Shown one piece after another: positions 10,897 to 41,792 of a stretch of DNA of 64,000 nucleotides (position 1 is its first letter; every line of letters starts with the position of its first letter). A model generated the notes under the pieces. The model made no database searches. It was not told where the DNA came from and saw nothing but the letters and a program-made list of their open reading frames with translations. Source of the DNA: Candidatus Moraniibacteriota bacterium (lineage in GTDB: Bacteria > Patescibacteriota > Minisyncoccia > Moranbacterales > UBA1568); assembly GCA_963743885.1 (NCBI GenBank), contig CAVURJ010000001.1, positions 204,949 to 268,948 of the forward strand, read 5' to 3'. The translations under genes were made by a program, and so were the position numbers.

Positions 10897-10954
10897 AAGC
10901 GCAGAGATGAAAAAAGCGGCACACCCTGGAATTTCAGGGGTGCCGCCTTTCTTG

Positions 10955-11496
10955 TCAGCGTTTCTTGAACTCTTCGAGGCCGATGTTCCAGGCCGTGACG
11001 ACATCGTCGTAGATGAGCGGGTTGAGCATCCGCTTCAGCCTTCCGAACTGCCGATTAAGGAGCGCGTTCCGGACTTCGGTTGCCGAGACCTTTTTCGTCT
11101 TTCTGCCGGAGAACCGGTCGACGATATGGTGCGGCTTACGGCCTTCCTCGATGAGGACGGAGATCTCTTCCTGGCATCCGCCGAGAAATACGGTTTCCTT
11201 CGGGTTGAAGCCGGCGGCTTCCAAGAGATGGTCGAGAGCGGTCAGCCAGGCAGTGTTGCTTTCGTTGAAATCAGGAAGCGGCACGACTGTCAGTCCAGGG
11301 AAGACGCGCTTGATGAATCCTGCGCGTTCCGCATAGCCGAAGAAGTGCCGGAGCGAACGTTCGTGGTTGGCACTGCCGATGAAGAGGATGGAATGGTCAC
11401 TCATATCGAGCATCATCTGTATCATGGCCTCATGGCCGAGATGCTGCGGGTTGAAGCGGCCGACATAGGCCATCTCTGGATAGTGCGTCTGCTTCA
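10955..11496 (-). CDS. nadM: nicotinamide-nucleotide adenylyltransferase, archaeal/NadM type
   Basis: YVGRFNPQHLGHEAMI (H-x-GH), IGSANHER, and SATEVRNAL parallel archaeal NMNAT. RBS aggag precedes the ATG. The 409-aa ORF extending further 5' is treated as spurious. Confidence 0.75.
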
Positions 11497-11590
11497 TTAT
11501 AAAATCTCCTTTCTTTGGAGTGTGTGGGAAGGAACTGGAAGGAGCAGTGTATCGGAAAGCGGTTTTTCCGTCAACAGAAAGGAGTTTGAT

Positions 11591-12229
11591 ATGGAAGAGC
11601 AAAGACGATTGGAACAGCGGTTCAGCGCCTTCTGGAAGCGAGCTGGTTTGCGTGGCGATCCGACAGCGACTTTTTGGATGATCATGCGGCGCTATAGCGA
11701 AGCACATCGGCAGTATCATGCGCCGGCGCATCTCGAGAGTTGTTTCTGGGAGCTCGATCAGATCACTCGTCTGATCAGGGATCCGCTCGCGGTCGAGGGA
11801 GCGATCTGGTTCCACGACATCGTGTATGATCCGCGTCGGGCGGACAATGAAGAGCAGAGTGCGAAGCTCGCTCGGGGGTTGTTGGCTCGCGGAGGCGCGT
11901 CGAGGATGTTCGTCACGAAGGTGCGGCGGCTCATCCTGGCGACGCGGCATGCTGGTGCGACGCGGGATCGGGACACTGCGTTTCTGGTCGATATCGACCT
12001 CTCCATACTCGGGGCGGAACAGCCGCGATTCGATGAGTATGAGCGTGGGATCCGGAAGGAGTACATGTTCGTTCCGGAGGCGGAGTATCGTATCGGCAGG
12101 GGAGCGGTGCTTCGCAGGTTCCTTGATCGGAGAGCGATCTTTCAGACCGCTCCATTCAAGAGGCGCCTGGAACGTCAGGCGCACGAAAATCTTGAGCGCT
12201 CCATCGCGAGGCTTTTTGCCGCCGGGTAA
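11591..12229 (+). CDS. HD-domain metal-dependent phosphohydrolase
   Basis: YHAPAHL...IWFHDIVYD HD motif. RBS gaaaggag is upstream. The longer 10868-12229 ORF has a spurious N-terminus that is antisense to nadM. Confidence 0.6.
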   Translation: MEEQRRLEQRFSAFWKRAGLRGDPTATFWMIMRRYSEAHRQYHAPAHLESCFWELDQITRLIRDPLAVEGAIWFHDIVYDPRRADNEEQSAKLARGLLARGGASRMFVTKVRRLILATRHAGATRDRDTAFLVDIDLSILGAEQPRFDEYERGIRKEYMFVPEAEYRIGRGAVLRRFLDRRAIFQTAPFKRRLERQAHENLERSIARLFAAG

Positions 12230-13167: not shown

Positions 13168-13305
13168 TTGACAGAATTTTAATAGTGTATATACTACACT
13201 TAGTACTTCGATAGAGCAGAGTGAACGAGGGGAGGGAAGGAGGAGAAAGAAGACAGGCGCCACGGGCGCTTTTCCACAGACTACTTAGTGTAGTATGTAC
13301 ACTAC
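13168..13305 (+). promoter_or_regulatory. sigma70-like promoter (TTGACA-16-TATACT) with an overlapping palindromic operator, plus a second operator copy
   Basis: Operators at 13183-13205 and 13284-13305 share an AGTGTA-N5-TACACT core. The same motif is found upstream of pncB and of pnuC-nadR. Confidence 0.5.
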
Positions 13306-13418: not shown

Positions 13419-14264
13419 ATGGCAGCCAAAGCGAATGCATACAAGGGCCTCAAGGTGCACCTCATCGTCATCGATCCGCAGAACGACTTCATGGACAGTC
13501 CAGAAGCAGCTCTGCCGGTGCTGGGCGCAAACGCGGATATGCAGCGGCTGGCTGCGCTGATCGATCGGATCGGCGGCCGGCTCGATGATATTCACGTGAC
13601 GCTCGACTCACACCGCGTCATCGACGTCGGACATCCGGGTATGTGGCGCGATTCGGACGGCAACGTCCCGAATCCGTTCACCATCATCTCGGCGGCCGAC
13701 ATCGAGAGCGGCATCTGGGCGCCGCGCAATCCGGGTTTCCGGGCACGTCTTCTGGACTACGCCCGCACGCTCGAGAAGAACGGCAACTACCCGCTCATGG
13801 TCTGGCCGGAGCACTGCATTATCGGGACCCCCGGGCACAATGTCCAGGCGGACCTGATGGCAGCGCTCAAGCGCTGGGAACGACGGGAGTTCGCCAACGT
13901 CGACTACGTGGTCAAGGGCACCAACACCTTCACTGAGCACTACGGTGCTCTCCAGGCGGAAGTCCCCGATCCCGCAGATCCGACGACCACTCTCAACACC
14001 GGTTTCCTCGATGTTCTCGCGCAAGCGGACATCGTGGCGATCGCTGGCGAGGCGCTGTCGCACTGCGTGAAATCGACGGTCTCCCAGATCGCCGACAACA
14101 TCGGTCCCGAGCAGATCAAGAAGTTCCATATCTTGACCGACTGTTCGAGTCCGGTGTCGGCGGTTCCGGGTGGTCCTGATTTCCCAGCCATCGCGCAAGC
14201 GTGGCTTCGGGAAATGGAAGGCCGCGGGATGAAACTCGTGACCTCTGCCGATTTCCTGGCCTGA
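13419..14264 (+). CDS. pncA: isochorismatase-family hydrolase, probable nicotinamidase
   Basis: LIVIDPQNDFMD and a catalytic Cys in ALSHCVKS. Preceded by the NAD-regulon operator and RBS aaaggag. Confidence 0.6.
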   Translation: MAAKANAYKGLKVHLIVIDPQNDFMDSPEAALPVLGANADMQRLAALIDRIGGRLDDIHVTLDSHRVIDVGHPGMWRDSDGNVPNPFTIISAADIESGIWAPRNPGFRARLLDYARTLEKNGNYPLMVWPEHCIIGTPGHNVQADLMAALKRWERREFANVDYVVKGTNTFTEHYGALQAEVPDPADPTTTLNTGFLDVLAQADIVAIAGEALSHCVKSTVSQIADNIGPEQIKKFHILTDCSSPVSAVPGGPDFPAIAQAWLREMEGRGMKLVTSADFLA

Positions 14265-14300
14265 TATTTCTGGCCACTCTACAACGAAAGGAGAAACATC

Positions 14301-15053
14301 ATGCCGAGACTCAATCAGGAAGAAGGGATGGGCAGCCATCGGATCGGCGGCGGGAACTTCACCTTTACCGGTGCCCGCATCGATCAGTTGGGGGCGACCG
14401 AGTATACGCTCGTGACGGTGGCAGTCGATGTCACCGGATCGACGGCGCGGTTTGCCGATGATCTGCGGGCGATGCTCGTGACGGCGGTGGAAGCCTGCAA
14501 GAAGTCGCCGCGTTCGGACAACCTGCTCCTGCGGGCCATCACGTTCTCGACGGCAGTCGGCGGCGTGAGCGAACTGCACGGCTTCAAGCCGCTGGCAGAA
14601 ATCGATCCGAACGCGTATCCGGTATTTTCTCCGGATGGGCTGACACCGCTCTACGACGCGGTCTACTCGTCGGTCGGAGCGATGACGGAATACGGCGAGC
14701 AGCTCATGCAGAATGACTATCTCGCCAACGCCATCGGCTTCATCATCACCGACGGGCTGAACAACGCCGGGACAGCGACGCCCAAGATGATCCGTGACGA
14801 GATCGGAAGTGTGGCGGCCAAGGAACGGCTCGAATCGCTCGTGACGATCTTGATCGGGATCAACGCGGCCGAGTATGAGCGGGAGCTCCGCGAGTTCCAG
14901 CACGAAGCCGGCATCGGGCAGTATATCGATGCGGGCGACGTGACCAAGGCGAAGCTTGCCAAGCTCGCTGACTTCGTTTCGCAGTCGGTATCCAGCCAGT
15001 CTCAAGCGTTGGGCACCGGCGGTCCGAGCCAGAATATCCAGGCCGTCATCTGA
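14301..15053 (+). CDS. vWA domain protein (TerY-like)
   Basis: MIDAS LVTVAVDVTGST. It is the first gene of a vWA / PP2C / kinase triad. Confidence 0.75.
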   Translation: MPRLNQEEGMGSHRIGGGNFTFTGARIDQLGATEYTLVTVAVDVTGSTARFADDLRAMLVTAVEACKKSPRSDNLLLRAITFSTAVGGVSELHGFKPLAEIDPNAYPVFSPDGLTPLYDAVYSSVGAMTEYGEQLMQNDYLANAIGFIITDGLNNAGTATPKMIRDEIGSVAAKERLESLVTILIGINAAEYERELREFQHEAGIGQYIDAGDVTKAKLAKLADFVSQSVSSQSQALGTGGPSQNIQAVI

Positions 15054-15131
15054 TGGTCCGGAGTACGGGGCGGCAGGAGATCTCTCCTTCCGCCCCTTTT
15101 TTTCTTCGAAGTGTATGAGAGGAGAGAAATC

Positions 15132-16052
15132 ATGGATATCAGGAATGCTGACCAGTATTTCCACATCGGATACTCGCATCTCATCGCGGGGAAACCGTGC
15201 GAGGACTACGCGCTCTCTGACATCTACGGAGAAGCGGCGGTAGCGATAGTGTCCGACGGCTGTTCGACCGGAGCCCATACCGACATCGGCTCGCGCATCG
15301 TGGCGCTCTCGATGGCGGGGGCGGTCCGCGATCAGTTGTCTGGCGGGAAGGGTTTGTCCGGCAGCCAGTCGGCGCGGGAGATCCGCAAGCGTCGCGGAGA
15401 GATCATCGCGGAGAGCAAGAGCATCCTTGGTCTCGAGGATCGGAATTTGCTCGCGACCTCTGTCGCCGCGGTATCTGCTTCACACGGCGCGATGGTCTTC
15501 GTGGACGGGGATGGCGTCGTCGCCTTCAAGTATCGCGATGGACAGTCTGTCCTCTGGCGATTCGAATGGGACGGCAACATGCCTTTCTACCCCGCGTACA
15601 GCGGAGAAGACCAGGAGCGTTTCGTGGCGGCGCATGGGGGCGATCCGGCAGTGGTCCGTTTTCGGCAGTCCGTCTGGGTATGCGGAAGCGATGGCACGCT
15701 CGAGGATAAAGGAGAGCGGTTGTGGACGCTTGCGGAAGGGATGGCGGGCATCACGCTCTTCGTCCCAGGCTCGCATCTGTCTGCCGAGCTGGAATACATC
15801 GCGGTCTTTACCGATGGTGTCACCCAGATTGCGGAGACGGATTGGAAGGACGCAGCACTCGGATTTCTGTCCTTCAAGAGTACGGCTGGCGAATTCGCGA
15901 AGCGCCGGATGATGAGCGGACTCCGGGATCTGCGCAAGGCGGGACGGGAGCCGCTCGACGACATCGCGTATGCGGTGCTTCACTTCAACTCTGACGAAAC
16001 CAAGGAGGCGGATCATGGCACAAGCGAAGAGCAATCTCAAGGTAACGCTTGA
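15132..16052 (+). CDS. PP2C-family Ser/Thr protein phosphatase
   Basis: AVAIVSDGCSTGAHTDIGS, VFVDGDGVVAF, and AVFTDGVTQ match PP2C metal-binding motifs. RBS aggaga precedes ATG 15132; the ORF is open from GTG 15111. Confidence 0.6.
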   Translation: MDIRNADQYFHIGYSHLIAGKPCEDYALSDIYGEAAVAIVSDGCSTGAHTDIGSRIVALSMAGAVRDQLSGGKGLSGSQSAREIRKRRGEIIAESKSILGLEDRNLLATSVAAVSASHGAMVFVDGDGVVAFKYRDGQSVLWRFEWDGNMPFYPAYSGEDQERFVAAHGGDPAVVRFRQSVWVCGSDGTLEDKGERLWTLAEGMAGITLFVPGSHLSAELEYIAVFTDGVTQIAETDWKDAALGFLSFKSTAGEFAKRRMMSGLRDLRKAGREPLDDIAYAVLHFNSDETKEADHGTSEEQSQGNA

Positions 16053-17748
16053 AGGCCGCGGGACGCTCGTCCTCCGGCCAAGCGATCACATCGCGACGGG
16101 CGGGGAGGGTTCGGTATACCGTGCCGGAGGCATGGTCGTGAAGGTCTACACCGATCCAGCACATATGCAGCGGGATGATATGGCCGGCAAGATCAGGCTG
16201 CTTTCTGGCCTGAAGCATCCGTCCATCGTCGCGCCGCACGGATTGGCGCTCGGCCAGAGCGGCGAGCCGATCGGGTACTACATGCCCTTCGTCCCGGGCG
16301 AGCCGCTGACACGCGCATTCACGAACGATTTCCGTATCCGCGAGGGTTTCGGTGATCGGGAGACGAGGCAGCTCGTCGATCGGATGCGCGAGACGGTTCG
16401 GTTCGCCCATGGAAGACAGGCTATCCTCGTCGATGCGAATGAGCTCAACTGGCTCGTGAAGCCGGGCAGCAAGAATGGTCCCGAGCCGTACGTCATCGAC
16501 GTCGATTCTTGGGCGGTCGGTCGGTGGCCAGCGAAGGTCATCATGCCATCCATCCGTGATTGGCAGTCAAAGGGATTCGACGAGGGGACGGACTGGTTCG
16601 CCTGGGGAGTTGTCACCTTTCAGGTGTTCTCAGGCATTCATCCGTACAAGGGCAGTCTGGATGGGTATAAGCGCGGTGATCTGGAAGGCCGGATGCGGGC
16701 GAAGGCTTCGGTCTTCACGCCAGGCATCGGGCTCAACCAGGCAGTGCGGGACTTCTCGTCCATTCCTGGGCCGCTCCTCAATTGGTATGAGGCGGCGTTT
16801 CAGGGGAGCGAGCGGTCAGAGCCGCCATCGCCGTTTCAGACCGGAGCACCGACAGCGAAATTGGCTCCGGTACGGCGAGCGGTCGCGACGGCCCAGGGAC
16901 TACTCGTCTACGACAAGTTGTTCGATGGCACGGGCGATCCGGCGATCAGAGTCTTCCCTTCCGGTGTCGTCATGACCAAGAAGGGGCGGCTCATCGACCT
17001 CTCCACGAAGCGTGAGATCGGGCAACCGCTCTCACGTGACGGCGAGGTCATCCGGGTGGAGGGCGGCTGGCTCAAGGCGGACTGGAAGGGCGGGCAGGCG
17101 GAGTACTCATTCGTCTCGAACACCCTTTCCGAAGAAGCCGTCTCGGTCCAAGCGAGCGTCTATCGCGTCGTGCGAAGTAGCAATCGGATGTTCGCAGTGA
17201 CGGACACGGGCCTCACCGAGCTCACCGTGCGTCTGTTCGCTCGCCCAGTGCTCTCGCTCGGACGGACATGGGGCGTCATGCGTCATGCTCTCCGGTGGTT
17301 CGACGGTGTGGGCGTGCAGGATGCTCTCGGGGCGATGTATCTCGTCGCACCGTTCGGCACCGAAAGCTGCGCGTACGTGCGGGTACCCGAGCTCGACGGG
17401 CTCCGGGTGATCGCTGCCAAGGCCGGGCATCGTTTCGTCTCAGCCATCGCGGCCGATGTGAACGGGATGTATCGGAAGCTCGAGTTCGCATTCGATAGCG
17501 AGTACCGGAGCTATACGCTGTGGCAGGGCGTGACGGATGATCCGGATCCCAATATCGCCATCCTGCCCAAGGGAGTGTGTGCCACGATTGTGGAGGACGG
17601 TGAGCTCGTCATCTTCGTCCCGGCGAACGGCCAGACGAACAAGGTGAAGGATCACCGCATCACGACCGCTCTCGCCCTCGCCAACTGGGAGGATCGAGTG
17701 GTCTACGTCTCCCAAGGCGAAGTGTGGCAGGTGCGACTCAAGCAGTAG
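16015..17748 (+). CDS. atypical protein-kinase-like protein with a ~300-aa beta-rich C-terminal domain
   Basis: GGEGSVYRA glycine loop, VKVY, HGRQAILVDANELNWLV catalytic-loop-like, IDVDSWAV, and DWFAWGVVTFQVFSGIHPY. RBS aaggagg precedes ATG 16015. The start overlaps the PP2C gene end. Confidence 0.6.
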   Translation: MAQAKSNLKVTLEGRGTLVLRPSDHIATGGEGSVYRAGGMVVKVYTDPAHMQRDDMAGKIRLLSGLKHPSIVAPHGLALGQSGEPIGYYMPFVPGEPLTRAFTNDFRIREGFGDRETRQLVDRMRETVRFAHGRQAILVDANELNWLVKPGSKNGPEPYVIDVDSWAVGRWPAKVIMPSIRDWQSKGFDEGTDWFAWGVVTFQVFSGIHPYKGSLDGYKRGDLEGRMRAKASVFTPGIGLNQAVRDFSSIPGPLLNWYEAAFQGSERSEPPSPFQTGAPTAKLAPVRRAVATAQGLLVYDKLFDGTGDPAIRVFPSGVVMTKKGRLIDLSTKREIGQPLSRDGEVIRVEGGWLKADWKGGQAEYSFVSNTLSEEAVSVQASVYRVVRSSNRMFAVTDTGLTELTVRLFARPVLSLGRTWGVMRHALRWFDGVGVQDALGAMYLVAPFGTESCAYVRVPELDGLRVIAAKAGHRFVSAIAADVNGMYRKLEFAFDSEYRSYTLWQGVTDDPDPNIAILPKGVCATIVEDGELVIFVPANGQTNKVKDHRITTALALANWEDRVVYVSQGEVWQVRLKQ

Positions 17749-17897
17749 CAGTATACCGGGGAATGGCTGAAACTAGCCTTCCCCGGATTTTTTTGTGACT
17801 ACGCGCTATTGACAGGATGGTATTTGCGTGATATTTTTATCCGTTATTTAAAAATTTTTACAACCACGCAGGATCCTTCAAGAAAGGGAGGAATGTC

Positions 17898-19052
17898 ATG
17901 GAAGTAGTGTACGCGAAAGAAAAGGCCCCGGAGGGGTATACGAAGTCGCTGTTCTTGGCTGGGCCGACCCCTCGCGATGCCTGGGTATCGTCTTGGAGGC
18001 CGGAAGCACTGGCAATCCTCGAAGCGAGCGGCTATGACGGCGTCGTCTTCGTTCCTGAAGCACGCGATGGCAAGTGGGCGAAGGGATACGAGGATCAGGT
18101 GGAATGGGAAGAGAAGCATCTCAACATGGCGGACTGCATTGTTTTCTGGGTTCCCCGGGAGATGAACACCATGCCGGCCCTGACCACCAACACCGAATGG
18201 GGCGTATGGCAGGATAGCGGCAAAGTCGTTTTCGGCGCCCCGGAGCATGCCGAGAAGGTCCGTTACCAGATCTATTACGCCAACCAGTTCAAGGTGTCCA
18301 TCAGTAGCAGCATCGAGGATACCATTCGGAGCGCGTTGTCGTTCATCGGCGAAGGCGTTTTGCGGTCTGGTGGCGAAAGAGATGTCCCTCTTTTCATCTG
18401 GAAGACGCCTCATTTCCAAGCGTGGTATTCCGCGCAGAAGAATGCGGGCAACAGGCTGGATGGTGCGAGGGTAGTCTGGACGTTCCGTGTAGGACCCAAC
18501 AGGAATTTCGTTTTCTTCTGGGCTCTCCACGTTGACGTCTTCATCGCCAGTGAGAACCGCAACAAGACCAACGAAGTCGTCCTTTCCAGGCCGGATATAG
18601 CGACTGTTGTGATGTATCGGCGAGCGGTGACGCTCGAAGAGACGACGGTCGTCTTGATCCGGGAATTCCGCAGTCCGGCGGCGACTGTCGACGGCTATGT
18701 CTGGGAAATACCAGGCGGGTCGTCATTCAAGCCGAAGGGCAATCCTCTGGAGTTGGCGGCGGCGGAATGCGAGGAGGAGACGGGACTGAGCGTGGATCCC
18801 ACACGGGTTTCTTTCCATAACGTACGCCAGCTCGTGGCGACGCTCTCTGCCCACAAGGCGCACGTATTTTCTGTCGAGATCACCTCGGAGGAAGTCGCTG
18901 CGCTTGAGGAGCAGAAAGGTATTCCGCACGGGGTACTGGAGGACACGGAAAGGACGTATGTGGAAGTCACGACCCTCGGCGAAATCCTCAAGCAGAACAA
19001 GGTCGACTGGTCCATGCTCGGGATGATCCTCTCCGTCATCAACCAGCGATAG
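17898..19052 (+). CDS. fusion of a nucleoside 2-deoxyribosyltransferase/DNPH1-like N-glycosidase domain and a Nudix hydrolase
   Basis: N-terminal flavodoxin-like region LFLAGP...YDGVVFVPE...EWEEKHLNMADCIVFWV...TEWGVWQDSGKVVFGAPE. C-terminal Nudix box GGSSFKPKGNPLELAAAECEEETGL. RBS aagggagg is upstream. Confidence 0.6.
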   Translation: MEVVYAKEKAPEGYTKSLFLAGPTPRDAWVSSWRPEALAILEASGYDGVVFVPEARDGKWAKGYEDQVEWEEKHLNMADCIVFWVPREMNTMPALTTNTEWGVWQDSGKVVFGAPEHAEKVRYQIYYANQFKVSISSSIEDTIRSALSFIGEGVLRSGGERDVPLFIWKTPHFQAWYSAQKNAGNRLDGARVVWTFRVGPNRNFVFFWALHVDVFIASENRNKTNEVVLSRPDIATVVMYRRAVTLEETTVVLIREFRSPAATVDGYVWEIPGGSSFKPKGNPLELAAAECEEETGLSVDPTRVSFHNVRQLVATLSAHKAHVFSVEITSEEVAALEEQKGIPHGVLEDTERTYVEVTTLGEILKQNKVDWSMLGMILSVINQR

Positions 19053-19077: not shown

Positions 19078-19116
19078 CCCCATAGGCTGCAAAGCTTATG
19101 GGGGATTTTTTTATGA
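19078..19116 (+). terminator. rho-independent terminator
   Basis: The sequence ccccataggctgcaaagcttatggggg is followed by attttttt. Confidence 0.55.
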
Positions 19117-19240: not shown

Positions 19241-19927
19241 ATGGGAGTAAATCTAAACGAAAATAAACTCCGAAAAGCTGAAGTAGAGGCTTTCAAAAAT
19301 GGCATCAGGCTACATTTTGATGCCATTAAGCTTTTTGAGAATAAATCGTATCCCAGCGCCTATGCCCTATCGGTTTTATCTTTGGAGGAATTCGGAAAAC
19401 AACGTCTAATTGATGAAATACTCTTTCGTTACATTGAGCATAAGGGAGAATTTGAAAACGATAAACAGTTTACTGATTTTTGTAAGGATTTTGAAAACGG
19501 GATGTTAAGTCATTCTTTGAAACAGGGATTTGCTGTATCAGACGATTTTCCGTTCATGAGGGGACGTAACAGAATGCAGAGAGGATTTTTATATAAAATG
19601 TTTAATCACAAGAATGGAAGGAAATTGATTGATGGTTGGAAAATGAGATCAATTTATGTCGGGTTTGAACACAATAGCTTAAAAGGGAGAATACAAACAC
19701 CGCTAAGCTTTATTAAGAGAAAAAAAGCACAAGATCAAATAACCGCCATAAATGATTATTTAGTAAATTTTATAATTTACCTTAGACAAGGCAGATGGAC
19801 GCTCGATAATGAAAATCTTATGAGGTTTTATAACACCAATCTTTTGAATAAACTCGTTGATATTTGGAAGAACAGACATGAGGACACTAGAAGCAGGCTA
19901 GATACCTTTTTGAGTTCTCGGAAGTAA
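19241..19927 (+). CDS. AbiV-like abortive-infection protein (tentative)
   Basis: AIKLFENKSYPSAYALSVLSLEEFGKQ is reminiscent of the AbiV-family N-terminus. First gene of a low-GC island. Confidence 0.3.
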   Translation: MGVNLNENKLRKAEVEAFKNGIRLHFDAIKLFENKSYPSAYALSVLSLEEFGKQRLIDEILFRYIEHKGEFENDKQFTDFCKDFENGMLSHSLKQGFAVSDDFPFMRGRNRMQRGFLYKMFNHKNGRKLIDGWKMRSIYVGFEHNSLKGRIQTPLSFIKRKKAQDQITAINDYLVNFIIYLRQGRWTLDNENLMRFYNTNLLNKLVDIWKNRHEDTRSRLDTFLSSRK

Positions 19928-20050
19928 TAATTGGTTAATGATTTTTTTGCTAATTTTTTGTTTGAATTGATTGCGTGATATAGTAAAGGCAGTTGACAAA
20001 GGTAAGAGATTTTTATTATAGGTAGCTAATTAAGGCCATAAAATATTTTT

Positions 20051-20563
20051 ATGATAAATGTAAATAAAATAAACGATATATTAGGATTTTTTTCGGACAA
20101 TGTTTCGGATCTAACTGTTACTAAGATAATGAAGTTATTTTATTATGTTGATTTTGTTTCTTTTGCAGAAAAAAATACTTCTGTTACAAACGATGTTTAT
20201 TATAAGCTTCCTTACGGTCCAATTCCCTCTTTTATTAAAAACGAGATCAACACTCTGACTTTCAAAACCATGCTTGGAGCAGAGGCTGGAGATTTGCAAA
20301 TTTCAAAAAATTTCGGAGTGGAACAGAAAAAGATAGGCAAGTATGATGCTTATGTTGTTAAAAATAATGGAAAAAAGAGTTCTCTTGAGAACTTATCTGG
20401 TTATGAGGTAGAACTCATAAAAAGGATATTAAATAAGTTTGGAAAGAAAACGGCAAAGGAACTAACTGATCGTACTCACAAAGAGAAACCATATCTTTTG
20501 ACAAATGAAAATTCAATTATTGATTATAAACTTGCTAGTTTTCTTAATACCAGTTCTATTTAA
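20051..20563 (+). CDS. Panacea-domain (DUF4065, SocA-like) protein, a putative antitoxin
   Basis: TKIMKLFYYVDFVSFAEKNTSVTNDVYYKLPYGPIPSFI matches the Panacea/DUF4065 pattern. Confidence 0.55.
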   Translation: MINVNKINDILGFFSDNVSDLTVTKIMKLFYYVDFVSFAEKNTSVTNDVYYKLPYGPIPSFIKNEINTLTFKTMLGAEAGDLQISKNFGVEQKKIGKYDAYVVKNNGKKSSLENLSGYEVELIKRILNKFGKKTAKELTDRTHKEKPYLLTNENSIIDYKLASFLNTSSI

Positions 20564-20568
20564 CAAGT

Positions 20569-21117
20569 ATGGGAGACTACGGGTTTGGCGATGTTTATGA
20601 TTGCAGAAATGTTCCAGAAGTGGAACATTTTATTGTTATATTAGGATTTCAGGAAATTAAGGGGAAGAAGATTATATTTTATGAAAAAGTAACTTCACGA
20701 GTTTATAAAGCCTTCAAGAAACTCAGTGATTTTTTTGAGGGTAACTGTAATGGGCAATGCAAGAAGTTCAAGCATAATTTCAAAGATAAGACCCCCATTT
20801 TCCATTACGGGAAATTATGCTTTACGTTATTTTTAGATAAGGACGAAAACTATCTCAATGAAGATAGCATGGTTGTGATAAAGGGTGATCCAGAGAAGAC
20901 GGACGAAACTATTATGGAGCAATGGATTAAGGCCGGACTAGCTAAATCGAAAACGAGAATTTCAAATGTAGACATTTATAAGTTAATGGCTATATTAAAT
21001 AACTCGGATAATTTAAGTAGTCCAGTAATCCATCATATCCGTCTCGCCTTTAGTGGGGTTGATAAAATGATAAAGATGCAAAACCTTCAGAAGGCTAGTA
21101 AGAAAAAGAAGAAATAG
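20569..21117 (+). CDS. hypothetical protein, candidate toxin partner of the Panacea protein
   Basis: Starts 6 bp downstream of the Panacea gene on the same strand. No recognisable domain. Lys-rich tail. Confidence 0.4.
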   Translation: MGDYGFGDVYDCRNVPEVEHFIVILGFQEIKGKKIIFYEKVTSRVYKAFKKLSDFFEGNCNGQCKKFKHNFKDKTPIFHYGKLCFTLFLDKDENYLNEDSMVVIKGDPEKTDETIMEQWIKAGLAKSKTRISNVDIYKLMAILNNSDNLSSPVIHHIRLAFSGVDKMIKMQNLQKASKKKKK

Positions 21118-21158
21118 TGGTTTGTAAAAAGAAGAAAAGGGAGAAGAAAAGGGGTCAA

Positions 21159-21240
21159 GTACCTTTTTAAGAAAGAAATGACACACCCGAGGCGCGGGAA
21201 GAATCTTTCATGACGGATCGGTCCGGCCCGCAGCATCGCA
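21159..21240 (+). repeat. island repeat copy A (~100 bp) with an embedded SD plus mini-ORF MTHPRRGKNLS* (21178-21213)
   Basis: About 85% identical to 22326-22432 and 23258-23367. Followed by hairpin terminators at 21286-21320. Confidence 0.6.
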
Positions 21241-21491
21241 AGACTAGAGAATGGGTTAAGTAGAACAATTTCCCCACTACAAAAAGTAACACGAAATGAC
21301 GGCCGTCGTTTCGTGTAACATTTTTGTTTTGATTTACCCTGTGAAATCCGACTTTGTCGGTCCGCCTACTGGCGGAATTTCACAGGGTGAATATTGACCG
21401 GTTTTCATGGCTGGATGTATACTTATATATGTAAGTCATGTAAACATCTTGGTTACCTGAGAAGTTGGTAACGGGATGAGCAAAAACAATT

Positions 21492-22299
21492 ATGAAAAAG
21501 ATAGAAGTGCAGGGGATTGAGATAGCCATAGTCTCTCAAAAAGAGCATGACTATATCTCTTTGGCTGATATGCTGAGAGCGAAAGATGGGGATTTCTTCA
21601 TATCTGATTGGCTGAGAAATAGGAATACGGTCGAATTTTTAGGAATCTGGGAACGGATTAATAACCCGGATTTTAATTATGGCGAATTCGCCATAATTAA
21701 AAGCCAAGCAGGGCTCAATAGCTATAAAATCAGTGTTAAGGAATGGGTGAAGAAAACGAGGGCTAGGATTGAAATCAACAGCCGGACGATATGGCGGAAC
21801 TTTCGCTCATAAGGATATTGCCTTCGAATTTGGTATGTGGATATCGCCGGAATTCAAGTTGTACCTTATTAAGGAGTTCCAGCGACTGAAAGTTGAGGAA
21901 AATGAAAGACTGATACTAGGTTGGGACGTGAAGCGGATGCTGACGAAGATGAACTATAAGATTCATACGGATGCGATAAACGAGAACATTGTCATTCCAC
22001 AGAAACTGTCGCAGAAGGATGCGAATATGACGTATGCGAATGAGGCGGACGTTTTGAATATGGCGCTTTTTGGCATGACAGCGAAAGCCTGGAGAGATAA
22101 GAATAGGAAAAAGGAAGGGAACATGCGGGACTATGCTGATGTGACGCAGCTCGTGTGTCTCGCCAATCTTGAGGGGTTGAATGCGGAGTTCGTCAGGATG
22201 GGAATGACGCAAAAAGAACGATTGCTCAGGTTGAATGAGGCAGCGATAGCGCAGATGAAATCGCTTTCGGGAAACAAGAATATCCGGAAGTTTCTATAA
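21492..22299 (+). pseudogene. KilA-N domain protein interrupted by a frameshift (ORFs 21492-21812 and 21769-22299)
   Basis: N-part ISLADMLRAKDGDFFISDWLRNRNTVEFL and C-part GGTFAHKDIAFEFGMWISPEFKLYLIKEFQRL together form one KilA-N domain. The two frames overlap at 21769-21812. Confidence 0.55.
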
Positions 22300-22325
22300 G
22301 AATTGAGAAGATAAGGAATCGAACG

Positions 22326-22432
22326 CCTTTTCAAGGAAGAAATGATGCATCCGAGGCGTGGGAAGGATCTTCTGTGACGAATCGATCCGGTCCGCAGCAT
22401 CGCGGGAGCAGGGGAATCTGAATATCACCCAG
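22326..22432 (+). repeat. island repeat copy B with mini-ORF MMHPRRGKDLL* (22342-22377), followed by a terminator
   Basis: See copy A. Downstream aaaacagccctgtctagagctgtttttt is a terminator. Then comes the palindrome gttaactattgactatatagttaac. Confidence 0.6.
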
Positions 22433-22553
22433 TAAAACAGCCCTGTCTAGAGCTGTTTTTTGTATCGAGAAAGAAAGTCTTGTTAACTGCTGTAGTGTAA
22501 GTATTCTATTGTTAACTATTGACTATATAGTTAACATATGTTAACATAAGGAT

Positions 22554-22808
22554 ATGGAAAAACAATTCTATACAACCAAAGAGATTTCGGAGTTGCTTGG
22601 CGTTAGCCGAGTGACTGTTTTCAAACAGATCAAATCTGGAAAGATTAAGGCTCAGAAAGTCGGGCGTAACTATATCATCCTCAAAGAGGACATGCCGGAA
22701 ATGCTGAACAAATCGTTGAAAGAATTTGATAAATCGAATATTCAGGATGCAGTGAAAAAAGTGGTAGACGAGTACAGCGAGACCCTTAAGCTTCTTGGGA
22801 AGGAATGA
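22554..22808 (+). CDS. HTH (excisionase/MerR-type) DNA-binding protein, putative Phd-like antitoxin
   Basis: YTTKEISELLGVSRVTVFKQIKSGKIKAQKVGRNYII HTH. Its stop overlaps the start of the Doc gene. Confidence 0.6.
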   Translation: MEKQFYTTKEISELLGVSRVTVFKQIKSGKIKAQKVGRNYIILKEDMPEMLNKSLKEFDKSNIQDAVKKVVDEYSETLKLLGKE

Positions 22809-23269
22809 GAATAAAGCAGATCTCAATCGTAGAGGTGGAGTATGTGGCGCATCGTCTTGCGCAGGAGACGATGAAGTGGAGCGAGCCCATACCTGATTTC
22901 AGCACTCGTTATCCGAGAGTGCTTGAGAGCTGTCTCGCAGCTCCTTTTCAGACATTCAGTCGGAAAGTTTTGTATAAAGGTCTTCATGGAAAAGCCGCCA
23001 TGTTGTTTTATCTGATGGTGAAGAACCATCCTTTTGAGAATGGAAATAAGAGGATTGCGATGACAACACTTCTTTATTTCCTGTATAAGAACGGGAAATG
23101 GATCAAAGCGGATGAAATGGAGTTTTATAATTTCGCGAGATGGGTGGCTGAGAGCAGCCCGAAGTTCAAGGATGAGACTGTTGCGGCTGTTCGGAAATTC
23201 GTTACGACTAATATGATAGACGTCGCTACTCAAGCATTAGAAAAGAAAGAGGATCGAGTACCTTTTTAA
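22805..23269 (+). CDS. doc: Doc (death-on-curing) family toxin (Fic fold)
   Basis: Doc variant motif HPFENGNKRIAMTTLLYFLYKNG. Translationally coupled to the upstream HTH gene. Confidence 0.8.
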   Translation: MRIKQISIVEVEYVAHRLAQETMKWSEPIPDFSTRYPRVLESCLAAPFQTFSRKVLYKGLHGKAAMLFYLMVKNHPFENGNKRIAMTTLLYFLYKNGKWIKADEMEFYNFARWVAESSPKFKDETVAAVRKFVTTNMIDVATQALEKKEDRVPF

Positions 23270-23367
23270 GGAAGAAAAGATGCATCCGAGGCGCGGGAAG
23301 AATCTTCCATGATGGATCGGCCCAGTCCGCAGTATCGCGGGAGCAGGAGAATCTGAATATCACCCAG
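23258..23367 (+). repeat. island repeat copy C with mini-ORF MHPRRGKNLP* (23280-23312)
   Basis: The repeat begins inside the last codons of doc (RVPF*), which means it supplies the doc stop codon. Confidence 0.6.
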
Positions 23368-23469
23368 CAAAACAGCCTTCATTTGAGGATTGTTTTTTGT
23401 TCCCTGCAATGGATGTTCTGATTAGGTGCTTAAAAATGGCTTGATATAAGGACATTGTGCATATACTGG

Positions 23470-23579
23470 GAAAATATGTAAAAAGTAGTGAATATTGTTA
23501 TATTTATGAGTAAATTCACTAAATATTGACAAAAAGTAGTGAATATACTACAATTAACGCATACTATTCACTAAAAAAT
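23470..23579 (+). promoter_or_regulatory. promoter (TTGACA 23526-23531, TACAAT 23549-23554) flanked by AGTAGTGAATAT / ATTCACTAAA inverted and direct repeats
   Basis: aaaaagtagtgaatat occurs twice, and attcactaaa occurs twice in inverted orientation to it. This looks like an operator architecture upstream of the Fic gene. Confidence 0.45.
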
Positions 23580-24461
23580 ATGGCAATCACTCAACCGATT
23601 AAGAATCGTATCCAAGCGTTGAAGAAGGAGTTTGATGCCTTGAAAAAAGGAAGGGAATCGCTTTTGGTGCTGCTTGATGAAGCCGAGATTCCGGAAAGCG
23701 TCTATAATTCCAACGCTATTGAGAATTCGACGCTTACGCTCAAGGAGACGGAGAAGATCCTACTTGATGTATCGGTGTCGCGCGACGTATCGGTGCGGGA
23801 AGTTTTTGAGACGAAGAATCTCGCTCGCGTCATCAACTATATCCGCACGAAATCCCAAGGAAAAGAGATCGATAGGGAAATGGTCCTGCTGTTGCACCAG
23901 ATGCTCATCGGGGGCATCAAAGATGAAATCGCGGGACGCTTCCGGACAAAAGGGGAGTATGTCCGGGTAGGAACATATATTGCTCCGGCACCGGAGCATG
24001 TAGAGCTGATGATCGCTTCAATCTTTTCTGGATACGAAAGCGAGCATGATTCGTATTTTCTCGATAAGATGGCAAAGTTCCATCTGGACTTTGAGAATAT
24101 CCATCCATTCTGCGATGGCAACGGCCGCATCGGTCGGGTGCTTGCCTGTTACCAATTGCTTCGATTGGGATTTCCTTTGATTATCATTCGGGACAAGGAA
24201 AAGGAAATGTACTACCAGGCATTTGCTGATTATCGCGATGGAAAGAATACGAAGACGATGGAAAAGGTGTTTTCGCTGGCACTTACGGAATCACTGTATA
24301 AACGCATTACGTATTTGAAGGGAGAAAAAATCATGACACTCGCTGACTATGTGAAGAAACACAAAAAATCAGCCGCTGCCATGTCGAATGCTGCTCGTCG
24401 TCAGAACATACCAGCTTTCCGCGAAAAGGGCGTTTGGAAGATCGGGGAGAAGTTTAGATGA
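23580..24461 (+). CDS. Fic family protein
   Basis: HPFCDGNGRIGRVLACYQL. Start is taken at MAITQPIKN; the TTG at 23526 in the ORF track is the -35 box. Confidence 0.85.
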   Translation: MAITQPIKNRIQALKKEFDALKKGRESLLVLLDEAEIPESVYNSNAIENSTLTLKETEKILLDVSVSRDVSVREVFETKNLARVINYIRTKSQGKEIDREMVLLLHQMLIGGIKDEIAGRFRTKGEYVRVGTYIAPAPEHVELMIASIFSGYESEHDSYFLDKMAKFHLDFENIHPFCDGNGRIGRVLACYQLLRLGFPLIIIRDKEKEMYYQAFADYRDGKNTKTMEKVFSLALTESLYKRITYLKGEKIMTLADYVKKHKKSAAAMSNAARRQNIPAFREKGVWKIGEKFR

Positions 24462-25362: not shown

Positions 25363-25401
25363 TTGACAGGAAACTATATAGTGTATATACTACACTTAGT
25401 A
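25363..25401 (+). promoter_or_regulatory. promoter TTGACA-17-TATACT with overlapping operator atagtgtatatactacacttagta
   Basis: Same motif as upstream of pncA-like and of pnuC. Confidence 0.5.
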
Positions 25402-26741: not shown

Positions 26742-26860
26742 AACGCCAACCTGTGGGAATATCTCGGAACATCGAGGTATCCCCACTCTTTTTCGGACCA
26801 TCATGTGTGGTGATCCGAAAGAGGGATATTTCAAGCAAGATCTTTAACAAGGAGACCGAT

Positions 26861-28602: not shown

Positions 28603-28642
28603 TTGACAAGAATATTTAAAGGTGTATACTATACACTAAGTA
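28603..28642 (+). promoter_or_regulatory. promoter TTGACA-16-TATACT with overlapping operator ggtgtatactatacactaagta
   Basis: GGTGTA-N5-TACACT half-sites. Lies upstream of pnuC-nadR. Confidence 0.5.
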
Positions 28643-28766
28643 AGGAAGTGGCTCGTGGTCGACGCGTCTCTCTCGTACGGTAATAGTGTAATAAGTACAA
28701 TAACTAAATACGGTAGGAGGGAAAGGACGGGAAGAGGGAGTGTAACCAGTAATATCACATACGACT

Positions 28767-30484: not shown

Positions 30485-30543
30485 TTGACACTTATAGCTG
30501 CGGGCGTATACTGGAAGCGGACAATTCATCAAACTTCTCTCCT

Positions 30544-38753: not shown

Positions 38754-38768
38754 CGTTTTTCGCTCGTT

Positions 38769-41781: not shown

Positions 41782-41792
41782 CACTTTTACGT

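Follow-up and report, generated by a model that had tools for sequence, protein, structure and literature searches.

An NDT-like–Nudix fusion protein of CPR bacteria and huge phages that recurs beside NAD salvage genes

The pairing of a Nudix hydrolase with a second enzyme of NAD metabolism is known from the NadM-Nudix proteins of Synechocystis, Francisella and phages, which are NMN adenylyltransferases and ADP-ribose pyrophosphatases at once (PMC2330246; PMC9503650). Hydrolysis of NAD+ by a nucleoside deoxyribosyltransferase (NDT)-like domain is known from the effector of retron Ec86 (PMC13276650). NADases and ARCs of the DrHyd superfamily have also been described, and gp334 of phage G (AEO93593.1) has been listed as a viral DrHyd protein and predicted to be an ADP-ribosyl cyclase acting on NAD (PMC9503650). 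The TerY-P triad is a modular switch that is joined to varied effectors and also acts as a stand-alone defence system (PMC11090510).

Here we analyse a gene from a 64,000-nucleotide stretch of a Candidatus Moraniibacteriota genome (the window) whose product fuses an NDT-like half to a Nudix half. It resembles NadM-Nudix in that an ADP-ribose-type Nudix domain is joined to what would be a second NAD-metabolic enzyme, in its occurrence in NAD salvage clusters that can be under NrtR control, and in its presence in jumbo phages; the partner domain, however, has the NDT-like fold of PF15891 and not that of a HIGH nucleotidyltransferase, and the Nudix box lacks the E7 and R15 residues. With the retron Ec86 (Eco1) and DrHyd/ARC effectors it shares an NDT-superfamily domain, which in those proteins works on the nicotinamide–ribose bond, the activity that we propose for the fusion. 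Unlike them, it has no PADLOC match, is accompanied by no retron or sensor fusion, and is joined to a Nudix domain and encoded in NAD biosynthesis operons. As its usual neighbours are NAD recycling genes, the fusion most likely dismantles NAD-derived nucleotides; that it does so as a self-contained bifunctional enzyme is a reading to which we assign a probability of about one half.

Domain architecture and conserved residues

The open reading frame at 17898..19052 of the forward strand, present in the ORF list and matched by Pfam, is a real gene that encodes a two-domain protein of 384 amino acids; a ribosome-binding site (GGGAGG) lies 5 nt upstream. The first-pass annotation had described a single polypeptide composed of an N-glycosidase-like half of the NDT/DNPH1 superfamily and a Nudix half, and Pfam and fold comparison agree on this: a Pfam search, of the kind which that annotation had suggested, identified PF15891 in the N-terminal half and PF00293 in the C-terminal one. 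The boundary had been placed too far downstream. In the AF2 model (pLDDT 81.9, pTM 0.70), the NDT-like fold does not extend over about 190 residues but stops near residue 150 and is followed by a helical linker (residues 150–185), while residues 186–241 already belong to the Nudix half as its N-terminal β subdomain. Full-length relatives are 57–74% identical to the protein. A search of NCBIfam returned nothing meaningful and one of PHROGs returned generic Nudix families only.

The N-terminal half (residues 1–150, 17898..18347, forward strand) is an NDT-like Rossmannoid domain of the PF15891 family in the ‘DrHyd’ superfamily. The Pfam match (Nuc_deoxyri_tr2) spans residues 16–117 and profile positions 2–104 of 105, with an E-value of 5.4e-12 and a score of 46.4 bits (cutoff 30). 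In Foldseek comparisons, this half superimposes on chains of the putative NDT 4mcj with a target-normalised TM score of 0.71–0.77 and an rmsd of 2.6–3.3 Å, and the family profile matches the same entry (E 1.8e-7) with Glu100 aligned to a glutamate of 4mcj. Glu100 (codon 18195–18197, forward strand), which is part of a TTNxEWG motif in the helix after strand 4, is by analogy with the family the putative nucleophile. It is invariant, together with E71, R87 and T96–N98, in fused and stand-alone N domains. An acidic patch and a glycine-rich segment had been pointed out when the gene was first annotated; both are present, and across 26 relatives E71, D79 and W84 of the former and T96, T97, N98, E100, G102, W104, S107, G108, G113 and P115 of the latter do not vary.

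DNPH1/Rcl, the NDTs of PF05014 and 4mcj (BDI_0649) share with this domain the Rossmannoid fold, an acidic residue before strand 3 and a T-x-x-E-x-G nucleophile motif. The fusion, however, scores with PF15891 and not with PF05014, and its genomic context points to pyridine nucleotides over deoxynucleotides. The family profile search gave no DNPH1 or NDT entry at E ≤ 10, the best 50 Foldseek matches included no CD38 or ARC structure, and no characterised PF15891 member was found in profile and literature searches.

The C-terminal half (residues 186–384, 18453..19049, forward strand) is matched by the Pfam NUDIX profile over residues 246–346 (PF00293) with an E-value of 1.2e-4 and a score of 22.5 bits, the cutoff being 21.1, and Foldseek matches it with a probability of 1.00 to many structures of the Nudix fold (α/β/α sandwich). 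Foldseek matches are the ADP-ribose and NDP-sugar enzymes 9b21, 3o61 (YffH), 1viu and NUDT14, with an E-value of 7e-9 for the ADP-ribose diphosphatase 9b21 and alignments of about 204–225 columns for 9b21, 9drd, 3o61 and NUDT14. Sequence matches in the PDB obtained with phmmer and profiles are mostly ADPRase, NUDT5 and NudK with the FRxP arginine aligned, although the similarity to these ADP-sugar enzymes is marginal (E about 1e-3 to 1e-4) and the best profile match, 1sjy, is an exception annotated as a ‘MutT/nudix family protein’. Subdomain layout and nearest relatives thus suggest that this half is a Nudix domain of the ADP-ribose/ADP-sugar pyrophosphatase subgroup.

These assignments bear on a role in nucleotide-pool sanitising or dNMP catabolism that would have nothing to do with NAD, in which a MutT-like half would convert non-canonical (d)NTPs to (d)NMPs and a DNPH1-like half would remove the base. 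The superfamily that the N-terminal half shares with DNPH1 and NDT, the annotation of some relatives as ‘8-oxo-dGTP pyrophosphatase MutT’ and the cytidylate or thymidylate kinase genes near the fusion at some loci would suit such a role. We nevertheless consider it very doubtful: the Nudix half has the two-subdomain layout of ADP-sugar enzymes and matches mainly ADPRase, NUDT5, NUDT14 and YffH (1sjy excepted), the neighbours that recur across phyla are NAD genes and not genes of dNTP metabolism, and the kinase genes are scattered housekeeping genes.

The Nudix box itself, which had been called perfect, is a variant. The segment GSSFKPKGNPLELAAAECEEETGL (residues 274–297, 18717..18788, forward strand) reads G274-x6-G281-x7-A289-E290-C-x-E293-E294-x-G296-L, which is one residue longer than the canonical GX5EX7REUXEEXGU and has glycine in place of the first glutamate and alanine in place of the arginine. 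A regular expression for the canonical box matched 0 of 26 family members, and the E7 and R15 positions vary across the family. The metal-binding glutamates E290, E293 and E294 and the box glycine G296, by contrast, are invariant in these 26 sequences from several phyla. So are R310, Q311, T315, S317 and H319. These residues belong to a loop that AF2 models with low confidence and that corresponds in the alignment to the stretch after the Nudix box of Thermus thermophilus ADPRase. In Ndx4, the ‘TDE’ motif of ADPRases places a catalytic glutamate on the loop after the Nudix box; in the HMMER alignment to 1v8i, the invariant His319 takes the place of this glutamate.

NudF, Ndx4, NUDT5, NUDT14 and YffH/NudK accordingly resemble the C-terminal half in their two subdomains, FRxP arginine, EUxEE metal site and flexible loop after the box, and differ from it in that the fusion has a box one residue longer, no E7 or R15, and an invariant histidine at the ‘TDE’ glutamate. 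The missing E7 and R15 and the position of His319 set this half apart from characterised ADPRases and count against an enzyme of NAD-derived nucleotides. Another reading is that the Nudix half is a non-catalytic, NrtR-like sensor of ADP-ribose that would switch the N-glycosidase half allosterically, which would agree with the absence of the canonical first glutamate and arginine from all members, with a Pfam NUDIX score barely over the threshold and with NrtR-type Nudix sensors in the same neighbourhoods. Invariance of the three metal-binding glutamates, the box glycine and the loop residues across phyla is nonetheless typical of an active site, and on plasmids a catalytic HIT hydrolase holds the position of the Nudix domain, which makes a mere sensor highly improbable.

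The gene and its surroundings in the window

At this locus the fusion has a promoter of its own, a TG-extended, σ70-like TTGACA-17-TATTTT element at 17809..17837 of the forward strand. A terminator hairpin with a U-run (17756..17786, forward strand; −23 kcal/mol, z = −5.1) follows the upstream kinase-like gene and thereby separates the kinase-like operon from the fusion gene, and a second such terminator (19078..19103, forward strand; −20.1 kcal/mol, z = −5.1) follows the fusion gene itself. The gene is thus cut off from both neighbours. No NrtR-type operator was found within 160 bp upstream of it (the best site has 5 mismatches in 12), which, like this isolation, counts against the NAD-nucleotide reading. 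Rfam shows no riboswitch or other RNA close to the gene.

Immediately upstream are four genes that, together with the fusion, make up a set of nicotinamidase-like, vWA-like, PP2C, kinase-like and NDT–Nudix proteins spanning 13419..19052. The first (13419..14264, forward strand) encodes a long nicotinamidase-like cysteine hydrolase of 281 amino acids, which matches nicotinamidases of the PDB by profile (2h0r, E 6.8e-5), has conserved D19/K166/C216 and WPxHC motifs, and is 49% identical to a Variovorax ‘cysteine hydrolase’ and 46% identical to a huge-phage copy. An assignment of this gene as a vWA protein was rejected, given its nicotinamidase-like identity. The second (14301..15053, forward strand; 250 amino acids, 52% identical to a Variovorax copy and 47% to a phage copy) carries a MIDAS-like DVTGST...T...TDG motif; it has no Pfam, PDB-profile or PADLOC match and its single-sequence AF2 model is useless (pLDDT 35.5), so the vWA call is by this motif only. 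The third (15111..16052, forward strand) is a PP2C-family phosphatase (PF13672, E 2.2e-14), whose gene is conserved in the module. The fourth (15970..17748, forward strand; 592 amino acids, or 577 from an alternative annotated start at 16015) has an N-terminal region that is weakly Pkinase-like (E 0.014) and a C-terminal domain of roughly 350 amino acids; it is matched by the module HMM and is 30% identical over 585 amino acids to a huge-phage copy.

A kinase/phosphatase/vWA triad directly upstream of the fusion had been part of the original description. The phosphatase is established by Pfam and the recurrence of the set makes the link of the fusion to these genes real, whereas the vWA assignment is that of a motif and the kinase assignment that of a match at E 0.014. 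The three-part architecture of vWA, PP2C and kinase directly 5′ of the fusion, with which it travels, resembles that of TerY-P (a TerY-like vWA protein, PP2C and a Ser/Thr kinase). The kinase-like protein, however, has a large C-terminal domain with no recognised zinc ribbon or OB fold, and the operon is headed by the nicotinamidase-like gene, with a putative NAD-regulon operator in its promoter. In PADLOC (PADLOC-DB 2.0), the fusion protein matched 0 families at E ≤ 1, and the four upstream partners gave no match at E ≤ 0.01 save a marginal one of the kinase-like protein to mad6 (E 0.0099), a model other than those of TerY-P.

The same putative operator links this operon to NAD salvage genes located downstream. 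The palindrome AGTGTA-N5-TACACT occurs seven times in the window against 0.54 expected. Two of these putative NrtR operators (13184–13200 and 13287–13303) lie 5′ of the nicotinamidase-like operon, the former overlapping the −10 element of a promoter at 13168–13195, and another (25380..25396) lies in the promoter of pncB. The salvage genes, all on the forward strand, are pncB (25491–26741), nadE (26753–28516), pnuC (28767–29486) and nadR (29483–30484), identified by Pfam, followed by nrtR (about 30547–31230), identified by its match to PDB entry 3gz5 (E 9.5e-34); further putative operators were found among them at 28621, 28685 and 30476. The nicotinamidase-like operon, pncB and pnuC therefore bear one common putative operator.

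Between the fusion gene and pncB is an island (19241..24461, forward strand) of an AbiV-like HEPN gene, SocA/Panacea, KilA-N and two Fic genes, recognised by Pfam and PADLOC, with a GC content of 0.29–0.45 against 0.57–0.62 in its flanks. The fusion gene had been placed at the edge of a defence island, but this adjacency is incidental: the gene (GC 0.574), like the NAD genes (0.57–0.61), has the composition of the backbone, and pncB or nadE directly adjoins the fusion gene in relatives. The island is an insertion between fusion and pncB and does not belong to the system. That the window might itself be a phage was rejected, given its genes for IF-2, TypA, a CCA-adding enzyme and XerC-like proteins.

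Distribution and recurrent neighbourhoods

A survey of the fusion and its neighbours, as proposed with the first annotation, shows a fixed architecture with recurrent NAD-gene and five-gene-set neighbours. Relatives in genome contigs were collected by an alignment-based scan, a single-sequence scan of these contigs having given none, and open reading frames in high-GC actinomycete loci were called with a GC3 filter. At E ≤ 1e-30 the family comprises 507 clusters at 50% identity, nearly all of 380–400 amino acids and matched in a single stretch; among relatives with extra domains, one RapZ-C fusion and one duplicated NDT domain stand out, the others being uninformative. The bacterial members come from CPR bacteria, actinomycetes, myxobacteria and cyanobacteria; relatives are also encoded on 138 viral contigs, and of the 80 loci kept, no fewer than 29 lie on contigs of more than 200 kb. 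The protein gp334 of Bacillus phage G (AEO93593.1) belongs to the family. The spread is sporadic over phyla and mobile elements, as in horizontal gene transfer, with identities of 47–74% across phyla. On conjugative and linear plasmids of actinomycetes, the N domain occurs alone in RapZ-C-like/HIT/NDT mini-operons, directly 3′ of a HIT nucleotide hydrolase. In these, HIT replaces Nudix as the partner that cleaves a phosphoanhydride, which argues that both halves act on one substrate chain.

Roughly one CPR locus in four has the fusion inside an NAD salvage operon (PncA, PncB, NadD, NadE, NAD kinase, Prs, NrtR). Among 70 genome loci, 13 have NAD genes no more than 13 genes away on either side; most of these genes are within ±5, and many directly adjoin the fusion and point the same way. 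Roughly three quarters of genome loci have none nearby, which weighs against the NAD-nucleotide reading. Gene orders are NadD-PncA-x-NADK-PncB-[fusion]-HisPhos-rSAM-ARG-Prs-NadE at L012, NrtR-[fusion]-NadE at L006 and L013, and NADK-x-PncB-[fusion]-...NadE at L083 and L094, which come from independent metagenomes; at L094 the stop codon of the fusion overlaps the start of nadE. The L083 operon also contains a separate Nudix gene of the YffH/AdpP type, so plain hydrolysis of ADP-ribose may be redundant there. In huge phages, the fusion lies beside NrtR, NadR, NadD and nicotinamidase-like genes. The actinomycete chromosomal neighbourhoods that we examined contain unrelated housekeeping genes (cmk/der/tyrA, GH10, aldo-keto reductase, FUSC) and carry no functional signal, which likewise counts against the NAD-nucleotide reading.

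The AGTGTA-N5-TACACT operator is present 5′ of NrtR-[fusion] at L006 and of rSAM-[fusion] at L044. Over 176 loci, however, it is not enriched directly 5′ of the fusion (3 observed against about 1.7 expected), and the idea that the fusion is everywhere a direct target of NrtR was rejected on this count, which is also a point against the NAD-nucleotide reading.

The five-gene set recurs at L012, L013, L015, L028, L083 and L094, in the huge phage LR745208 (L098/L100) and in the viral loci L137, L158, L109 and L178. A Variovorax megaplasmid has part of it, in the order nicotinamidase-like (49% identity), vWA-like (52%), x, NDT-only (42%) and NAD kinase, with two Nudix genes and a Macro gene alongside. 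Conservation of the set in CPR genomes, huge phages and in part on a megaplasmid, its TerY-P-like architecture, the NDT-like NADase effector of retron Ec86 and the sporadic spread of the family would all suit a TerY-P-like conflict system in which the vWA/PP2C/kinase switch unleashes an NAD-destroying effector upon infection or stress. Such an effector would convert NAD+ to nicotinamide and ADP-ribose and the latter to AMP and ribose-5-phosphate, with the nicotinamidase-like enzyme clearing nicotinamide; bacteria would thereby abort infections or turn dormant, or huge phages would exclude competitors. Against this, PADLOC models, those of TerY-P included, match none of the five proteins, the family is strongly conserved (47–74% identity across phyla) and not fast-evolving, and the fusion stands alone at most loci and in NAD operons without the triad at L006, L025, L039, L042, L044 and L067. 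In the window, moreover, the triad operon shares its operator with pncB and pnuC, which looks like metabolic regulation, and the fusion gene is transcribed separately. We regard this scenario as improbable.

A second role in conflict, that of a counter-defence enzyme of mobile elements, appears distinctly unlikely. The fusion would then degrade immune signals or toxins made from ADP-ribose, such as cADPR isomers and ADPR conjugates, by cutting both the diphosphate and a glycosidic bond, and CPR copies would derive from phages. The 138 viral contigs with a relative, the 29 or more of 80 kept loci on contigs exceeding 200 kb, the membership of phage G gp334 and the N-domain-only versions in plasmid mini-operons of actinomycetes are in line with this, as are phage Nudix, Macro and SLOG enzymes predicted to target soluble ADPr derivatives (PMC9503650). 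Cellular copies, however, are wired into NAD biosynthesis operons by pncB or nadE and not into anti-defence islands, the phage partners (NrtR, NadR, NadD and nicotinamidase-like genes) belong to NAD supply and not to signal degradation, and there is no direct evidence of a signal substrate.

A proposed role in NAD turnover

The first-pass annotation had considered the protein suited to dismantling NAD, ADP-ribose or a nucleotide-derived signal. The NAD-gene context, in CPR operons, in huge phages and on the Variovorax plasmid, fits NAD, ADP-ribose or a related nucleotide and is the strongest evidence found; cleavage of the two bonds by the two halves is predicted. Combining these findings, we propose that the fusion is a bifunctional enzyme of NAD-derived nucleotides that would work as follows. 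The ADP-sugar-type Nudix half would break the diphosphate linkage in ADP-ribose (or in NAD+ or NaAD) by means of a metal site formed by Glu290, Glu293 and Glu294, and the N-terminal half would cut or exchange the bond between pyridine base and ribose in NAD+ or NMN via a ribosyl-Glu100 intermediate. Overall, the enzyme would release nicotinamide, AMP and ribose-5-phosphate, just the compounds that the neighbouring enzymes use: nicotinamidase or its homologue would convert nicotinamide to nicotinate, PncB, NadD and NadE would rebuild NAD, and Prs would turn ribose-5-phosphate into PRPP. We infer the substrates, the order of the steps and the choice between salvage and controlled depletion from the domain identities, conserved catalytic-type residues, architecture and neighbourhoods described above. 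Unless it were regulated or specific for by-products, an NAD+-degrading enzyme encoded among salvage genes would run a futile cycle, which is a further point against the proposal.

The fusion would also be a piece of a mobile set, often accompanied by NrtR, which CPR bacteria share with huge phages and of which the Variovorax megaplasmid has a part; this shared set suggests that NAD turnover by the enzyme is tied both to the sensing of ADP-ribose and to a switch by phosphorylation. Taken further, the five genes, often with NrtR, could be a previously undescribed system of CPR bacteria and huge phages for control of the NAD pool, gated by phosphorylation and ADP-ribose, which once switched on would strip NAD+, ADP-ribose and nicotinamide together. 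We consider this unlikely; if true, the system would deny phages the precursors for NAD reconstitution while sparing nicotinate for its owner’s PncB–NadD–NadE route. In an alternative of the same kind, the NDT-like half might exchange pyridine bases.

Literature searches on PF15891, on NMN nucleosidase with Nudix and on NrtR with deoxyribosyltransferase gave no description of the family’s function, and no enzymology was found in searchable papers; this is a large family (over 500 clusters at 50% identity), of which apparently no member has been assayed. Should the NAD prediction hold, it would supply a gene and a structure for an N-glycosidic step of pyridine-nucleotide recycling, in which organisms dependent on the nicotinate route would cleave NMN or NAD to give nicotinamide. 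A vWA/PP2C/kinase switch tied to NAD enzymes offers a lead on what such triads control. Depletion and reconstitution of NAD are now central to the conflict between phages and bacteria, and huge phages and CPR bacteria would, if the prediction is correct, share a dedicated and regulated module of NAD turnover.

Domain architecture and conserved residues of the fusion

The open reading frame at 17898..19052 on the + strand encodes a protein of 384 amino acids, in which Pfam detects a Nuc_deoxyri_tr2 domain (PF15891, residues 16-117, E = 5.4e-12, above threshold) and a NUDIX domain (residues 246-346, E = 1.2e-4; score 22.5 bits, cutoff 21.1). An AlphaFold2 model computed with 26 relatives as input (pLDDT 81.9, pTM 0.70) contains an N domain of Rossmannoid fold (residues 1 to about 150), which a helical linker (about 150-185) joins to a C-terminal half made up of a β subdomain (186-241) and the Nudix core. 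In a Foldseek comparison with the PDB, the two halves had separate matches: the N domain matched 4mcj, an uncharacterised 'putative nucleoside deoxyribosyltransferase' (target-normalised TM up to 0.77), and the C-terminal half matched the ADP-ribose diphosphatase 9b21 (E = 7e-9), YffH/NudK 3o61, 1viu, and NUDT14. The Pfam domains, the model and the separate matches of the two halves show that the fusion of nucleoside deoxyribosyltransferase (NDT)-like and Nudix domains proposed in the first-pass annotation is real. The top viral fold match in BFVD is a 412-residue 'Nudix hydrolase' of Klosneuvirus KNV1 (A0A1V0SJZ7, E = 3e-12); judging by the alignment of 442 columns, a similar two-domain layout may exist in this giant eukaryotic virus.

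Both N-terminal segments singled out in that annotation, an acidic patch and a glycine-rich stretch, are present and contain residues that are invariant among the 26 relatives (E71, D79, W84, T96-N98, E100, G102, W104, S107, G108, G113, P115). E100 is the conserved glutamate at the nucleophile position of the NDT superfamily, and E71 is a second invariant acidic residue of this domain. The Nudix box, described earlier as perfect, is not so: it reads G274-x6-G-x7-A-E-C-x-E-E-x-G-L, and the canonical GX5EX7REUXEEXGU pattern fits none of the 26 family members. The first glutamate (E7) and the arginine (R15) of the box are lost, both positions being variable family-wide, and E290, E293 and E294 are invariant in the same set. 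The Nudix half is of the ADP-sugar type with its metal-binding glutamates intact, its FRxP arginine aligns with NUDT5, and a flexible loop (residues 310-319, pLDDT 42) is rich in invariant residues. A reading of this half as a simple ADP-ribose pyrophosphatase (ADPRase) is opposed by the absence of E7 and R15, by the alignment of His319 to the glutamate of the ADPRase 'TDE' motif, and by a separate YffH-type Nudix in the operon of metagenome contig L083.

Transcription unit and NAD-linked surroundings in the window

The fusion gene has a ribosome-binding site (GGGAGG) 5 nt before its ATG and a sigma-70-like promoter motif at 17809-17837. Because predicted hairpins with U-runs lie on both of its flanks (17756-17786 upstream, −23 kcal/mol, z = −5.1; 19078-19103 downstream, −20.1 kcal/mol, z = −5.1), the gene is a monocistronic unit in this genome. 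It is preceded on the + strand by four genes with which it forms a five-gene set. The first encodes a divergent nicotinamidase (13419..14264, 281 aa) that carries Asp/Lys/Cys and WPxHC motifs and whose profile hits PDB nicotinamidases (E = 6.8e-5). The second encodes a vWA-like protein (14301..15053, 250 aa) with a MIDAS-like DVTGST...T...TDG pattern, for which profile searches gave no match anywhere. A PP2C phosphatase recognised by Pfam (15111..16052, 313 aa) and a kinase-like protein (15970..17748, 592 aa, Pkinase E = 0.014 at best) follow. The longest kinase-like reading frame shares 83 nt (15970-16052) with the 3′ terminus of the PP2C gene, and its start is uncertain, being placed at 16015 (577 aa) in another public annotation.

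The edge of a defence island, which had been taken as the setting of the fusion gene, is not its native context. The island (19241-24461), encoding an AbiV-like HEPN protein, a SocA/Panacea-domain protein, KilA-N and two Fic/DOC proteins, has a GC content of 0.29-0.45 versus 0.574 for the fusion gene (GC3 0.72) and 0.57-0.62 for the NAD genes; this composition marks it as a foreign insertion, which now lies between the fusion gene and pncB. Downstream of it lie pncB (25491), nadE (26753), pnuC (28767) and nadR (29483), and the cluster ends with an NrtR-family regulator (about 30547-31230; PDB 3gz5, E = 9.5e-34). A 17-bp palindrome, AGTGTA-N5-TACACT, is present seven times in the window, where 0.54 occurrences would be expected. 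Two sites precede the nicotinamidase-like operon (13184-13200, 13287-13303), one lies in the promoter of pncB-nadE (25380-25396), two precede pnuC-nadR-nrtR (28621-28637, 28685-28701), and a weaker one is found before nrtR (30476-30492). The palindrome overlaps the −10 elements of consensus promoters, and we read it as a putative NrtR operator. It is absent from the fusion gene's own promoter, where the best site has 5/12 mismatches.

Two other gene groups are found in the window. The first (7797-12229), which also recurs near the fusion, encodes a NadR-like protein (cytidylyltransferase-like and CoaE-like kinase domains), a Ser/Thr kinase matching the PADLOC PD-T4-6/mad6 kinases (E about 1e-36) and an uncharacterised 345-aa protein; the latter two are paired again at L006 (10707-12877) and L096 (13771-18003). 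The second is a co-directional run (35678-46008) that encodes, together with several multi-pass membrane proteins, a VirB4-like ATPase (39859-41781) and a secreted protein of 913 aa; it resembles the type IV secretion or pilus-like clusters common in CPR bacteria. The window is itself cellular, its products including IF-2, TypA, a CCA-adding enzyme and XerC-like proteins, and its closest relatives come from CPR bacteria.

Spread of the family and its recurrent partners

The family is large and its architecture is fixed. A word-indexed search at E ≤ 1e-3 found 2170 proteins; its 120 best hits are full-length throughout and, the exact query copy aside, 57-74% identical. When representatives at 50% identity were searched exhaustively, clusters numbered 1710 at E ≤ 1e-3, 1287 at E ≤ 1e-10 and 507 at E ≤ 1e-30; almost every one of the top 150 has a length of 380-400 aa and matches in a single stretch. 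Among species genomes, relatives are encoded on 105 contig stretches from Saccharibacteria and many other CPR lineages, actinomycetes (Glycomyces, Actinomadura, Spirillospora, Amycolatopsis), Myxococcota, Cyanobacteria, Planctomycetota and one Shimazuella. Full-length copies are also encoded on three Streptomyces plasmids and, at about 51% identity, by Bacillus phage G (gp334, AEO93593.1) and an uncultured phage of 485 kb. IMG/VR contains 138 viral contigs with a relative, and at least 29 of the 80 loci retained lie on contigs longer than 200 kb.

In 80 genome loci, open reading frames were called and clustered, and the clusters were labelled by Pfam and NCBIfam. Neighbours were mostly unique to their locus, and the actinomycete chromosomal neighbourhoods examined contained unrelated housekeeping genes. 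NAD genes, often adjoining and co-directional, were found near the fusion in 13 of the 70 loci with the gene called, for example NadD-PncA-x-NAD kinase-PncB-[fusion]-His phosphatase (CobC-like)-radical SAM-ADP-ribosylglycohydrolase-Prs-NadE in L012; NrtR-[fusion]-NadE in L006 and L013; radical SAM-[fusion]-PncA-PncB in L039 and L044; and NADK, NadE, NrtR, radical SAM, PncA, PncB, [fusion], NadA and NadD in L067. Independent metagenome contigs repeated the NAD context in two of seven cases (L083, L094), the fusion stop overlapping the nadE start in L094. In other CPR loci the window's operator precedes NAD genes (L006, L039, L044 and L067), standing upstream of NrtR-[fusion] (L006), radical SAM-[fusion] (L044), PncA and NadE. 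Immediately upstream of the fusion it is not enriched (3/176 loci, about 1.7 expected). A radical SAM protein, weakly MoaA/viperin-like, recurrently adjoins the fusion (L012, 12135-13094; L039, L044, L015, L042, L067; viral L155 and L156), and a CobC-like histidine phosphatase flanks it in L012, L015 and L028.

HMMs of the four genes that precede the fusion in the window matched near the fusion in L012, L013, L015, L028, L083 and L094. In the 485-kb phage LR745208 all five genes are co-directional within 11.5 kb (identities: nicotinamidase-like 46%, vWA-like 47%, PP2C 26%, kinase-like 30% over 585 aa, fusion 51%), and a search over 25 kb found no gene for NAD biosynthesis. At least one partner lies within 10 kb of the fusion in 33 of the 80 IMG/VR loci: vWA-like in 13, NrtR-like (E about 1e-60) in 12, NadR-like in nine, PP2C and kinase-like in seven each, and nicotinamidase-like in five. 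Viral locus L137 reads [fusion]-NrtR-nicotinamidase-like-vWA-PP2C-kinase, and L158 keeps this order with the N domain only in place of the fusion. This recurrence in CPR genomes and phages bears out the earlier proposal that the fusion belongs with the phosphatase, kinase and vWA genes. The vWA/PP2C/kinase architecture is similar to that of the TerY-P triad (PMC11090510), among the nearest known systems. No protein of the set matched PADLOC defence models, TerY-P included. The set begins with a nicotinamidase homologue, has NAD genes as companions and, in the window, carries the NAD-regulon operator.

A partial module on a Variovorax megaplasmid (L090, NZ_LR594667.1, 375-7395) reads nicotinamidase-like (49% identity)-vWA-like (52%)-x-NDT-only (42%)-NAD kinase; beside it lie two Nudix genes, RecX, a Macro gene and AlkB, which suggests a wider ADP-ribose or repair-linked island. 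The N domain alone is found on many actinomycete and Variovorax plasmids. On the actinomycete plasmids it retains the invariant residues of the fusion and directly follows a nucleotide hydrolase of the HIT family, and in some cases a RapZ-C-like protein comes first, as in mini-operons on conjugative and linear plasmids (L092, 5166-6504; L089, 5564-6492; L093, 5424-6492); a metagenomic relative, P0161, joins RapZ-C, NDT and Nudix in one protein. That a HIT hydrolase takes the place of the Nudix partner argues for an N-glycosidase acting in series with an enzyme that cuts nucleotide phosphoanhydrides, which implies that the two halves of the fusion act on one substrate chain.

A possible role in NAD turnover

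We rate the protein as a putative bifunctional NAD/ADP-ribose-processing Nudix fusion. The Nudix half would hydrolyse ADP-ribose (or NAD+/NaAD), and the NDT-like half would act on NAD+ or NMN by cleaving or exchanging their pyridine base; nicotinamide, AMP and ribose-5-phosphate would result and pass to PncA(-like) enzymes, PncB-NadD-NadE and Prs. The enzyme could serve to salvage by-products, namely the NMN that ligase produces and the ADP-ribose left by NAD-consuming enzymes, or to break down the NAD pool in a controlled way. An NDT-like domain cuts NAD+ in the retron Ec86 effector (PMC13276650), and DrHyd NADases and cyclases (PMC9503650) provide further precedent. In the latter paper, AEO93593.1 of phage G, a member of the fusion family, is cited as a viral DrHyd and predicted ADP-ribosyl cyclase; the passages covered here make no mention of the Nudix fusion or of the gene set. 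Besides the TerY-P triad, the nearest known counterparts are DNPH1, NDT and PF15891 structures, NDT-like NADase effectors, ADP-sugar pyrophosphatases and NadM-Nudix, which likewise couples an NAD enzyme to an ADPRase but has a different partner domain. The family is already in databases under generic names, with one member mentioned in passing in print; the literature searched yielded neither a functional study of it nor an account of the five-gene set or its NAD-operon context. Should the set exert phosphorylation-gated control of NAD, the fusion would be of greater significance.
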